Below are positions 8,187 to 12,666 of a DNA stretch of 64,000 bases, in pieces. The position numbers were made by a program, and so were the translations under genes. The DNA is from Escherichia coli (GTDB lineage: Bacteria; Pseudomonadota; Gammaproteobacteria; Enterobacterales; Enterobacteriaceae): NCBI RefSeq assembly GCF_013315695.1, contig NZ_CP054353.1, one strand, 5' to 3'. Every line of letters starts with the position of its first letter. The first letter of the stretch is position 1. The notes below the pieces were generated by a model. The model did no database searches. It was not told the DNA's origin and worked only from the letters and a program-made list of their open reading frames with translations.

Positions 8187-8256
8187 TGTGAGTCTCCCGC
8201 GGTGGGCGATGCCCACACGCTTTGGTATGAAAATTGTAGGGTACAGATGCGTTTAT

Positions 8257-9223: not shown

Positions 9224-9246
9224 TATACCTTTATACCTGTTATACC
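9224..9246 (-). promoter_or_regulatory. NanR operator: three GGTATA repeats in the nanA promoter region
   Basis: Plus strand reads TATACCtttaTATACCtgtTATACC, i.e. GGTATA x3 on the nanA strand; NanR is known to bind GGTATA repeats. Confidence 0.75.
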
Positions 9247-9309: not shown

Positions 9310-10101
9310 TTATTTCTTTTTGTTGGTGGTCTGACCGAAGGCGTGCCAGGTAGCAGAGACGCTGTTGAGATGCGATTGCAACGCGCGATCGGCTTCATCG
9401 GGATCGTGGCGGCGGATCGCGTCAACGATCGCAATATGCTGTTGATAGCTAACGTTGTTATGCTCGTGCAGAGCCTGATCAGCCACGGTTGGACGTGCGG
9501 CGATCAGCCAGTCGAGCAGGGCAACGTGGATCGCCATGAAGATTGGGTTACCGGGGATCTCCGCCAGCACGCGGTGGAAATCAACGTCTGAACGAATGAA
9601 TGCCGCGTTGTTATCCAGCGACTGACTGTTGATTTCCAGTGCTTTTGCCAGCAAATCGATTTGCTCATCGGTGGCGTGTTCAGCCGCATAGCGCACCAGG
9701 CTGGATTCAAAGAACAGACGTAATTGTTCGAAATGGGCAATCCCGCCAGGATGAGAAAGGAAATCTTTCGCCATGCCGGAAAGCTCGCCGATGATGGTGT
9801 CCGCAGAAGGACGTGAGACGCGAGCGCGTTCGCCGTTGTTTATCTGCACCAGACCTTTGCGTTTTAACGCTGCCAGCGCTTCACGCACCGAAGGACGCCC
9901 GACGTTAAAGAACGCCATCAGTTCGCGTTCAGACGGTAATTGTTCACCTTCGCCAAATTCACGACGGCGGATCATCTGTTCCAGCTCTTCTTCCACCATT
10001 TCGGAGAGTTTTTTACGCGCCAGCGGGCGGCTGCGTAAGTTGCGGCCAATTGCAGGTGAAGAATCTTCGGTTTGCGAATCAAATGCGTTCATAAGGCCCA
10101 T
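9310..10101 (-). CDS. nanR: nan operon repressor (GntR/FadR family)
   Basis: 263-aa ORF with N-terminal wHTH; upstream of nanA on the same strand. Confidence 0.95.
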
Positions 10102-11648
10102 TCTGTAAGGTCAGTGTGATTAACATCATCAGTGACATCCTATCACAGGATTGAAAGTAGGGGGAAATGGCGGGGTTTTCTCTTTGTGCCTCATCATTAC
10201 TATAATTAACTGAATAATTAACTATTGCGAAAAATTAATGTAACGCAGATAAAAACATCCCGACTGAATTATTCATAAGACTATTAACAAGTATTATGAA
10301 TATTATGAATGTGTTCTTACAAAATAATCATAAGCGCATATTTTTTAATGAAAAATCACCTCATCTACAATTAAAAACACGACATCCGCACCATAAATAG
10401 CCTTGCAAAAAATATAACATCATTGTTTTCAATCTGCCGTTTATGGGATTGACCGTTTTCTTTTGACACGGAGTTCAACAATGTTCGGCATAATTATATC
10501 TGTCATCGTATTAATTACGATGGGCTATTTGATCCTGAAAAACTACAAACCTCAGGTGGTGCTGGCTGCCGCAGGTATCTTCCTGATGATGTGCGGTGTC
10601 TGGTTAGGGTTCGGTGGTGTGCTCGATCCCGCCAAAAGCAGCGGCTACTTGATCGTCGATATTTATAATGAAATCCTGCGCATGCTGTCCAACCGCATTG
10701 CCGGATTGGGGCTGTCGATTATGGCAGTGGGTGGTTATGCCCGCTATATGGAGCGCATAGGGGCCAGTCGCGCGATGGTGAGCTTGTTAAGCCGCCCGTT
10801 AAAACTCATTCGCTCGCCGTATATTATTCTGTCGGCAACTTACGTCATCGGCCAAATCATGGCGCAGTTTATTACCAGCGCCTCCGGTCTGGGTATGTTG
10901 CTGATGGTCACCTTATTTCCGACGCTGGTGAGTCTGGGAGTAAGTCGCCTCTCTGCGGTGGCGGTTATCGCAACCACGATGTCCATTGAGTGGGGGATTC
11001 TGGAAACGAACTCCATTTTTGCTGCCCAGGTCGCAGGAATGAAAATTGCCACTTACTTCTTCCACTACCAGCTTCCGGTCGCCTCTTGCGTCATTATCTC
11101 GGTGGCGATCTCCCACTTTTTCGTGCAACGCGCTTTCGACAAAAAAGATAAAAATATCAATCACGAACAGGCAGAGCAAAAAGCTCTCGATAATGTCCCG
11201 CCGCTCTATTACGCCATTTTACCGGTGATGCCGTTAATCCTGATGCTCGGCTCGCTGTTCCTTGCCCACGTCGGGCTGATGCAGTCAGAACTGCATCTGG
11301 TGGTGGTGATGTTACTGAGTTTGACGGTGACGATGTTTGTTGAGTTCTTCCACAAGCATAACTTGCGCGAAACAATGGACGATGTGCAGGCGTTTTTTGA
11401 CGGCATGGGTACGCAGTTTGCCAACGTGGTAACGCTGGTGGTCGCGGGTGAAATATTTGCGAAAGGCTTAACGACGATTGGCACTGTCGATGCGGTTATC
11501 AGGGGGGCGGAGCATTCTGGTCTGGGCGGTATTGGCGTGATGATTATTATGGCGCTGGTCATTGCCATTTGTGCCATTGTGATGGGCTCAGGCGGTGATG
11601 CTGCCAACTTACTGATTTAGTGTATGATGGTGTTTTTGAGGTGCTCCA

Positions 11649-11924
11649 GTGGCTTCTGTTTCTATCAGCTGTCCCTCCTGTTCAGCTACTGACGGGGTGG
11701 TGCGTAACGGCAAAAGCACCGCCGGACATCAGCGCTATCTCTGCTCTCACTGCCGTAAAACATGGCAACTGCAGTTCACTTACACCGCTTCTCAACCCGG
11801 TACGCACCAGAAAATCATTGATATGGCCATGAATGGCGTTGGATGCCGGGCAACAGCCCGCATTATGGGCGTTGGCCTCAACACGATTTTACGTCACTTA
11901 AAAAACTCAGGCCGCAGTCGGTAA
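11649..11924 (+). CDS. insA: IS1 InsA (transposition inhibitor / N-terminal part of transposase)
   Basis: 91-aa ORF with zinc-finger-like CPSC...CSHC motif typical of IS1 InsA. Confidence 0.9.
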
Positions 11925-12346
11925 CCTCGCGCATACAGCCGGGCAGTGACGTCATCGTCTGCGCGGAAATGGACGAACAGTGGGGCTATGTCGGGGCTAA
12001 ATCGCGCCAGCGCTGGCTGTTTTACGCGTATGACAGGCTCCGGAAGACGGTTGTTGCGCACGTATTCGGTGAACGCACTATGGCGACGCTGGGGCGTCTT
12101 ATGAGCCTGCTGTCACCCTTTGACGTGGTGATATGGATGACGGATGGCTGGCCGCTGTATGAATCCCGCCTGAAGGGAAAGCTGCACGTAATCAGCAAGC
12201 GATATACGCAGCGAATTGAGCGGCATAACCTGAATCTGAGGCAGCACCTGGCACGGCTGGGACGGAAGTCGCTGTCGTTCTCAAAATCGGTGGAGCTGCA
12301 TGACAAAGTCATCGGGCATTATCTGAACATAAAACACTATCAATAA
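11843..12346 (+). CDS. insB: IS1 InsB frame (expressed as InsAB' transposase by -1 frameshift)
   Basis: 167-aa ORF overlapping insA in the -1 frame, as in canonical IS1. Confidence 0.85.
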
Positions 12347-12637
12347 GTTGGAGTCATTACCCGCTCAGGCAATGCGCCGTTTATGTCATTTGCCAGTCTT
12401 ATTCCGAATATCGCAGCCGGACTACATGTACCAGCGGTTGTAATGATTATGCCGATGCATTTTGCCACGACGCTAGCGCGCGCTGTTTCGCCGATTACTG
12501 CGGTGGTGGTCGTTACGTCAGGAATTGCAGGCGTTTCGCCTTTTGCGGTAGTGAAGCGGACAGCGATCCCCATGGCAGTCGGTTTCGTGGTGAATATGAT
12601 TGCCACTATCACGCTATTTTATTAAGCGATTAAAAAG

Positions 12638-12666
12638 ACAAAACAGGCCGCCAGGGCCTGTTTTAG
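12638..12666. terminator. bidirectional rho-independent terminator between dcuD and sspB
   Basis: Hairpin AACAGGCC-GCCA-GGCCTGTT flanked by an A-run and a T-run. Confidence 0.7.

Follow-up and report, generated by a model that had tools for sequence, protein, structure and literature searches.

Between nanR and dcuD in Escherichia coli lies a spacer of 380 bp in which one short sequence recurs—twice in tandem, and again, inverted, a little upstream. What is this repeat for? It might be a site through which dcuD is controlled, it might be a by-product of slippage in AT-rich DNA, or it might belong to something else altogether, such as a promoter for nanR or a small open reading frame. The window—by which we mean the whole 64-kb stretch of DNA that was analyzed—carries nanR as a 263-codon ORF on the minus strand (9310–10101), and dcuD on the plus strand with its ATG at 10481. 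Here dcuD is a pseudogene, disrupted by an IS1 element (Table 1), and so the role of any element upstream of it is moot for this particular strain. PMC6414658 and PMC12886548, citing Janausch & Unden 1999, in any case describe the gene as silent, or not expressed. In the literature that we searched, no site or regulator is described for dcuD/yhcL or for the repeat sequence, and among transcription-start and H-NS data the supplementary material of Kim 2012 and of Cho 2014 lists neither dcuD nor nanR.

The repeat was noticed in a sequence-only reading of the window, and its description there was accurate. Two exact copies of ATTATGAAT stand in tandem on the plus strand, and upstream of them, where that reading placed it, is ATTCATAA, the reverse complement of TTATGAAT. 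The distance that it gave from the gene is also right: the three copies are 171–210 bp upstream of the dcuD ATG (10481–10483). The setting is AT-rich, as was said, and extremely so; GC content is 23–27% throughout 10200–10400, the lowest in the neighborhood, and the repeats themselves (local sequence …CTGAATTATTCATAAGACTATTAACAAGTATTATGAATATTATGAATGTGTTC…) sit at the minimum of 0.23. What escaped notice was a fourth member of the family, AATCATAA, the complement of TTATGATT, on the downstream side of the tandem.

Table 1. Coordinates of features in and around the nanR–dcuD spacer
Feature	Position	Strand	Observations
Zone A, conserved nanR-proximal block	10137–10170	−	From the spacer alignment
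Extended −10-like TGTGATAGGAT	10137–10147	−	In 16 of 20 sequences, both genera; probable nanR promoter
Zone B, AT-rich mid-spacer	10180–10293		Neutral-rate divergence, many indels; holds the upstream inverted copy
12-bp tandem, ATAATTAACT × 2	10202–10223		In zone B, 70 bp from the ATTATGAAT tandem; neutral
Upstream inverted copy ATTCATAA	10271–10278	−	Lineage-specific; ATTTATAA in K-12 and O157; unconserved in Citrobacter
Tandem copy 1 ATTATGAAT	10293–10301	+	T10294, T10297, G10298, A10299 and A10300 (near-)invariant in 20 Escherichia/Citrobacter sequences
Tandem copy 2 ATTATGAAT	10302–10310	+	G10307, A10308 and A10309 invariant; T10312 and G10313 also conserved
Conserved inverted partner AATCATAA	10326–10333	−	ATCATAA (near-)invariant across the two genera; distance to the tandem fixed
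Zone C, conserved dcuD-proximal region, putative control region	10294–10480	+	Ungapped through the repeat block
Longest invariant run AAAAATATAACAT	10408–10420	+	Contains −10-like TATAAC; candidate dcuD core promoter
dcuD, 5′ part (annotated dcuC-type transporter)	10481–11593	+	Broken after about codon 371
IS1 inside dcuD	11594–12362	+	insA and insB ORFs; target duplication of 8–9 bp

Might such a pattern arise simply from base composition? The sequence TTATGAAT occurs eight times in the window versus 2.0 expected, a number that none of 100 shuffles reaches; three of the eight are clustered at the repeat, and the other five are in coding or unrelated sequence. When the local DNA is shuffled with its dinucleotides preserved, a perfect tandem with a unit of at least 9 nt appears in 25 of 5000 shuffles at the GC content of the intergenic region (0.33) and in 30 of 5000 at that of the core (0.26), i.e. 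in 0.5–0.6%; any 8-mer present three times within 50 bp appears in 9 and 18 of 5000, respectively. Because both the tandem and the triple 8-mer are this rare in shuffles, the pattern exceeds what base composition would produce. The arrangement TTATGA-N19/N28-TCATAA is unique in the window, where 0.07 are expected, and the conserved tandem/TCATAA pattern described below has no further occurrence within these 64 kb. The four family members do form a mirror-like figure, (−)N15(+)(+)N15(−) over 10271–10333, but this we regard as coincidence: there is no true dyad, and the left arm is unconserved.

Strains of E. coli differ in whether they have this DNA at all. Almost every complete genome encodes nanR (5418 of 5426), but the spacer and dcuD are present in only about 4340; in some 1080 others nanR lies directly beside sspB, without either. 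Strains such as SF-088 and A13, which have no dcuD, lose homology at the nanR start codon, and the 107 bp that separate nanR from sspB in them is unrelated filler. The spacer and dcuD are one accessory cassette, missing from about 20% of E. coli, and since the 380-bp spacer and the gene are gained or missing together, the region belongs to dcuD. Strain AR_0077 has the same spacer as the window (100% identity), and most E. coli match it at about 96.6%. When seven E. coli alleles are aligned, the 18 nt of the tandem do not vary; the upstream inverted copy, in contrast, reads ATTTATAA in K-12, O157 and F690, a C/T polymorphism, and six spacer polymorphisms fall in the 30 bp around it. Twenty-two of 40 records in an evenly spaced sample carry the K-12-like haplotype, with its six mismatches, from which it follows that roughly half of E. 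coli are without the exact inverted copy.

The number of tandem units varies as well. Two copies are found in about 4299 E. coli genomes, one copy in about 35 that match a one-copy query without gaps and are mainly of the O145:H28 lineage, and three copies in five that match a synthetic query over its full length (G5, MEW, BS15R-A, FDAARGOS_448 and Z1002); in strain C325 a deletion of exactly 9 bp has reduced the pair to a single ATTATGAAT. The tandem behaves in this respect like a VNTR, changing among strains by whole units, and the existence of one-, two- and three-copy alleles implies that slippage, though rare, both adds and removes whole units. Insertion sequences find their way here, too. 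In strain ET734 an IS1 is inserted right beside the tandem, flanked by the target duplication CACGAGCAT, and in a laboratory evolution experiment an IS5 inserted in the nanR/dcuD spacer and was selected for altered regulation of nan (bioRxiv 10.64898/2026.02.02.703383).

Beyond E. coli, when each species was represented by one genome, the order nanA–nanR–dcuD–sspB–sspA, with a dcuD orthologue, turned up only in other Escherichia—sp. MOD1-EC7003, sp. E1V33 and E. whittamii among them—and in 15 species of Citrobacter, whose DcuD proteins are 87–89% identical. The next relatives of DcuD, at 76% identity or less, belong to non-enteric anaerobes (Negativicutes, Desulfovibrio); the one upstream region read from these, in a Negativicutes metagenome-assembled genome (locus L024), is unrelated to the spacer. 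Our comparison set, 20 sequences in all, covers two genera only: besides E. coli it takes in four further lineages of Escherichia and 15 species of Citrobacter. Four-fold degenerate sites in dcuD show how far neutral positions have drifted. Between E. coli and Citrobacter their identity is 0.35–0.46, near saturation, and between E. coli and E1V33 or E. whittamii it is 0.71–0.72.

Identity of the spacer to the 15 Citrobacter species is 0.26–0.44 over 10222–10293, rises to 0.56–0.78 in the tandem and 0.57–0.83 over 10311–10333, and reaches 0.87–0.93 over 10408–10422. In the full spacer alignment, conservation sets in at the first tandem copy. The upstream inverted copy has an identity of 0.25–0.50, and the gap between it and the tandem, 0.14–0.43. 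Zone B is as AT-rich as the repeat block of zone C, yet it is unconserved. The positions that are invariant, or nearly so, in the repeat block comprise T10294, TGAA at 10297–10300, T10304, GAA at 10307–10309, TG at 10312–10313, C10316, T10318 and ATCATAA at 10327–10333, and they include five conserved G or C: G10298, G10307, G10313, C10316 and C10329. None of the 20 sequences has an insertion or deletion between the TG at 10297 and the ATCATAA at 10327, so spacing, too, is conserved. The Citrobacter consensus of this block is TTTATGAAATyTrnGAAyATGAnCnTGAAAAATwATCATAAC, in which the counterpart of the tandem is TGAAAT-N4-GAAYATG. Nearer home, E1V33 and E. whittamii have the 18-nt tandem unchanged; given a local identity of about 0.76, the chance that all 18 positions would be kept is about 0.007.

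Seen against these relatives, the repeat takes on a somewhat different shape. The sequence-only reading had proposed the tandem and the upstream copy together as a regulator-binding site, and half of that proposal stands. The tandem lies within the conserved block upstream of dcuD, and its cores are kept among strains, in other Escherichia and in Citrobacter; the copy at 10271, by contrast, lies in neutrally diverged DNA. As this copy is polymorphic, and no more alike among orthologues than neutral sequence, the layout of tandem plus upstream copy is not a conserved unit, and judging from the alignment the copy falls outside the element. The true conserved partner is instead the inverted TCATAA on the other side of the tandem. 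The older feature is thus a pair of (T)GAA cores, repeated directly but imperfectly at 9 bp, to which an inverted TCATAA keeps a constant distance. The perfect identity of the two 9-nt copies is specific to Escherichia and would be a sharpening of this older, imperfect repeat.

Among the binding motifs with which the sequence was compared, none fits the tandem. ARG boxes, the sites of ArgR, are 18-bp palindromes of the form TGAAT-N4-ATTCA, usually in pairs with 3 bp between the boxes. Both pentamers, TGAAT and ATTCA, are present in the repeat region, but those at 10265–10275 (TGAAT-T-ATTCA) are spaced by 1 nt, the TGAAT units of the tandem are direct rather than inverted, and paired 18-bp boxes are lacking. 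The argR gene itself lies in the window, about 10 kb distant. The operator consensus of NikR is GTATGA-N16-TCATAC; the spacer has TTATGA with N19 or N28 before TCATAA, and its inner spacing is lost in Citrobacter. The CRP form, TGTGA-N6-TCACA, is not present, and for Fur, Zur, ModE, EvgA, TorR, RcsAB, IHF, Lrp, ArcA, KdgR/IclR and NagC nothing was seen that agrees in both sequence and spacing and is conserved as well. All of these, from ArgR to NagC, were judged by reading the sequence against their consensus sequences. For FNR (TTGAT-N4-ATCAA) a search of 10130–10528 allowing two mismatches found no match, the nearest being at 10116–10129, beside nanR, and the closest form among relatives, TTGAT-N5-ATCAT, has the wrong spacing.

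A regulator close at hand is NanR, the product of the divergent neighbor. There is a likeness: the Nan box, too, repeats a short unit directly, about every 9 bp, and belongs to a promoter of this locus. The one upstream of nanA, however, consists of three tandem GGTATA hexamers with a period of 8–9 bp, and the dcuD repeat is made of ATTATGAAT, without GGTATA. A real Nan box exists in the window, at 9224–9246 on the minus strand; searched for as GGTATANNNGGTATA with up to two mismatches, the motif is absent from 10102–10480 and matches only the nanA operator (9232–9246). Genomic SELEX with NanR found sites only at nanC/fimB and nanA, and none in the nanR–dcuD spacer (PMC4797297, PMC5934670), and this, although the window's allele is outside those data, counts against binding of NanR here.

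A sigma-54 promoter predicted for dcuD is listed in RegulonDB (PMC3118216), but TGGCAC-N5-TTGCW has no match on the plus strand of 10102–10480, even with three mismatches, and the ChIP-seq sigma-54 site that has been assigned to dcuD, TGGTATGAAAATTGTA (PMC4591121), is found at 8223–8238, between nanT and nanA and 2.25 kb upstream. Candidates for sigma-70 include TCCATA-17-TATAAC at 10413, present in 12 of the 20 sequences, a -17-WATCAT pair at 10326 in 11, and TTGTAA-18-CATAAT on the minus strand in five; sigma-70-like pairs are no more numerous than in shuffles. Nor is the conserved block a structured RNA. A search of Rfam returned only a snoRNA model, with a meaningless E-value of 0.5, and RNAalifold, applied to 17 sequences, gave −0.93 kcal/mol, no compensatory pairs and no conserved structure. 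With neither a conserved RNA structure nor an Rfam match, the constraint is on the DNA. The only open frame leads to the same place: its pS is 0.24 and its pN 0.25, both far below neutral divergence, and the equality of the two again points to constraint on nucleotides.

Constraint on nucleotides, with specific G and C positions held and their spacing kept, suggests contacts with a DNA-binding protein. The repeat, its conservation, its fixed spacing and its varying copy number are matters of observation; protein binding and any effect on transcription are what we infer from the constraint, and we are evenly balanced on the more definite proposal that the tandem is a distal cis-regulatory part of dcuD, providing contacts either for a regulator or for RNA polymerase. 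More loosely put, the tandem is probably ordinary regulatory DNA, because the control region whose outer limit it forms is one that E. coli has in common with Citrobacter. The TGAA/GAA cores, 9 bp apart, together with the inverted TCATAA 19–28 bp downstream, would be the points of contact. In one version, a regulator would bind the direct TGAA/GAA and the inverted TCATAA, some 95–130 bp upstream of the core-promoter candidate AAAAATATAACAT, and would control the normally silent promoter of dcuD. In the other, the protein would be RNA polymerase itself: TTATGA within copy 2 (10303–10308) and, 17 bp further on, WATCAT (10326–10331; AATCAT in the window) would serve as a weak −35/−10 pair. All 20 sequences keep the second and sixth positions of the latter hexamer (A2 and T6), and the spacing of the pair does not change, much as for a sigma-70 promoter; unlike one, the −35-like hexamer matches at only three or four of six positions, its invariant G is non-consensus, and several alternative pairs exist in the same DNA.

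Some observations sit awkwardly with a cis-regulatory tandem. It is no better conserved than the remainder of zone C, and Citrobacter keeps only 8–10 of its 18 positions. The natural one- and three-copy alleles shift the spacing and are evidently tolerated, and promoter-like hexamer pairs occur at the chance level in DNA this rich in AT (two found versus 2.7 expected).

The bgl operon is a known case to set beside dcuD. It is cryptic, with an AT-rich H-NS silencer upstream of its promoter, and insertion of IS1 or IS5 activates it. Like bgl, dcuD is silent, and insertion sequences naturally target the very AT-rich DNA upstream of it (the IS1 of ET734, the IS5 of the laboratory evolution experiment); with an AT-rich tract (GC 0.23–0.27) ahead of a silent, apparently acquired gene in an accessory cassette, the locus is a putative H-NS target. 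It differs in that binding by H-NS and activation by insertion are features of bgl and only putative at dcuD, and in that the IS5 event was read by its authors as a matter of nan regulation (bioRxiv 10.64898/2026.02.02.703383). Perhaps the tandem was born of slippage in silenced DNA of this type and has no sequence-specific role, its conservation reflecting a generic constraint on AT-richness or curvature—the main rival explanation, though we think it less likely than not. The low GC content across 10200–10400, the reported silence of dcuD, the absence of the cassette from a fifth of E. coli with its nearest outside relatives in Negativicutes and Desulfovibrio, the variation from one to three copies, and the arrival of both IS1 and IS5 in the spacer all agree with it. 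So does the 12-bp tandem of neutral zone B: it has lost one unit in Escherichia sp. MOD1-EC7003, and hence slippage repeats do arise neutrally in this spacer. Slippage alone, however, leaves it a puzzle why both genera hold on to particular G and C positions and to exact distances when equally AT-rich zone B is not conserved. The ungapped alignment shows, moreover, that the two-copy state of Escherichia involved no insertion relative to Citrobacter, and this state has outlasted a divergence in which some 28% of neutral sites changed. Sheer coincidence in low-complexity DNA is hardly credible. The region is 75% AT, a composition in which short repeats and hexamers resembling promoters come up often, but shuffles yield a 9-nt tandem in just 0.5% of cases and a triple 8-mer in 0.2–0.4%, and the cores are conserved across genera.

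Two further readings give the repeat a function of another kind. On the minus strand, ATTCATAATATTCATAAT contains two CATAAT hexamers that resemble −10 elements, with TTGTAA 18 bp upstream, and the tandem might thus be part of a promoter for nanR. A consensus scan does pick out TTGTAA-18-CATAAT, running from 10322 to 10293 and matching at 9 of 12 positions, and the selection of the spacer IS5 for altered nan regulation also speaks for it. Transcription from there would, however, leave nanR with some 185 nt of 5′ leader crossing a non-conserved zone; the last T of the hexamer is lost in Citrobacter (CATAAA, CATCAA, CATTAA), and the site scores in only five of the 20 sequences; promoter-like matches do not exceed chance; a much better conserved extended −10, TGnTAGGAT, is available in zone A, some 35 bp away from the start of nanR; and strains of E. 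coli that lack the spacer still have nanR. We think this reading very unlikely. Only a shade less improbable is a small upstream ORF or leader peptide, MNIMNVFLQNNHKRIFFNEKSPHLQLKTRHPHHK, running from an ATG at 10296, inside copy 1, to a TAG at 10400 and beginning MNIMNVFLQNNHK…, in which the repeat units would encode MN-I-MN. At the aligned start codon all 20 sequences have ATG, GTG or TTG, and in none of them does the frame close before 16 codons; each of the other five frames is broken by stops in 14–20 of the sequences. There are synonymous changes within Escherichia (TTA>TTG, CAT>CAC, AAG>AAA), and a few E. coli annotations list a hypothetical protein. Yet in a six-frame test its pN/pS, 1.02, is no lower than that of other frames or of control blocks; its length ranges from 16 to 34 codons and its C-terminus is unconserved; it has no consistent Shine–Dalgarno sequence and no conserved promoter upstream; and two independent 48-nt frames free of stops in all species, found among some 600 tests of position and strand, are about what chance provides. 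Neither the peptide nor the repeat sequence appears in the literature that we searched.

What does the repeat mean for dcuD, then? On the cis-regulatory reading, which we prefer, it would mark the upstream boundary of a control region of about 190 bp (10294–10480), one that Escherichia and Citrobacter have kept even though neutral sites between them are saturated. If that is all, the tandem is a rather ordinary thing, a promoter-distal repeat in AT-rich DNA, and a member of a very familiar class. A bolder conjecture, and an unlikely one, is that TGAA-N6-GAA…TCATAA is an operator for DcuD at which an activator, or an anti-silencer opposing H-NS, binds, or else that the leader ORF at 10296–10400 couples expression of dcuD to its own translation. 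Were the second true, dcuD would be expressed in step with translation of that ORF; were the first true, the operator would turn on a cryptic C4-dicarboxylate carrier, DcuD, under a condition that has never been tried in the laboratory. Either way, for a gene that has been seen as silent since 1999, the repeat may provide a small but concrete handle on its control.

Two stretches of the nanR-dcuD spacer stand out when the 20 Escherichia and Citrobacter sequences are compared. Judged by conservation, the strongest footprint in the spacer is the invariant run AAAAATATAACAT, close to dcuD; it contains a -10-like hexamer, TATAAC, and includes half of a Zur/ModE-like word, TATAACAT, the partner half of which is missing. 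The other is the block that adjoins nanR. Here, in 16 of the 20 sequences, the nanR strand carries TGTGATAGGAT (TGn plus TAGGAT, resembling an extended -10 element), which probably serves as the promoter of nanR and would give a leader some 30 nt long. One of the two palindromic words nearby, TGTGATTAACATCATC, is a near-match to the FNR/CRP pattern; neither word (10114-10147 together) is kept in Citrobacter.

Features of the nanR-dcuD spacer and its surroundings
Feature	Position	Strand	Remarks
TGGTATGAAAATTGTA	8223-8238	+	between nanT and nanA
TGTGATTAACATCATC	10114-10129		CRP-like or palindromic word just upstream of nanR start
GTGA-N7-TCAC	10132-10146		CRP-like or palindromic word just upstream of nanR start
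nanR-adjoining block	10137-10170	-	kept across Escherichia and Citrobacter
ATAATTAACTGA / ATAATTAACTAT tandem	10202-10225		12-bp period; non-conserved portion of spacer
ORF MNIMNVFLQNNHKRIFFNEKSPHLQLKTRHPHHK	10296-10400	+	34 codons; starts within first 9-nt repeat
AAAAATATAACAT	10408-10420		13 nt; unchanged in 20/20 Escherichia and Citrobacter sequences
IS1 copy	11594-12362		~769 bp; 8-9 bp target duplication; within dcuD
insA (IS1)	11649-11924		
insB (IS1)	11843-12346		

Escherichia sp. MOD1-EC7003 lacks one unit of the 12-bp tandem. The small ORF that begins in the first 9-nt repeat is recorded as a hypothetical protein in a few E. coli entries, in some of them as a 56-aa form; purifying selection was looked for in this ORF, and none was seen. 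Within the nan operon, and antisense to it, TGGTATGAAAATTGTA corresponds to OA06, one of the sigma-54 sites that Bonocora et al. mapped by ChIP-seq; they assigned this site to dcuD, 2253 bp away (PMC4591121).

IS1 breaks dcuD of the window near codon 371; in strain AR_0077 and in K-12 the gene is uninterrupted and encodes 455 aa. The spacer itself has been struck by natural IS1 insertions in other E. coli. In ET734 (locus L007, 733-1500) the element lies directly 5' of the 9-nt tandem, with target duplication CACGAGCAT. In WEM25 (L008, 2247-3000) it adjoins GTTGTTTTCAATC, at about window position 10422; gltD now lies upstream of IS1, and the nan operon and entire upstream region have been lost.

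Beyond Escherichia and Citrobacter, the nearest relatives of DcuD (42-76% identity; loci L024, from a Negativicutes MAG, and L028-L042; proteins P0050-P0120) come from Negativicutes (Succiniclasticum, Acidaminococcaceae, Anaerospora) and from Desulfovibrio rather than from other enterobacteria, and because of this the sequences suggest that enteric dcuD was acquired horizontally. Among 5426 complete genomes of E. coli, about 1080 lack the entire spacer and dcuD (~1.8 kb; window 10102-12640 compared with loci L043 and L044). In these genomes only 107 bp separate nanR from sspB, approximately 75 bp of which is unrelated sequence, and in such strains, therefore, nanR must rely on a different upstream region.
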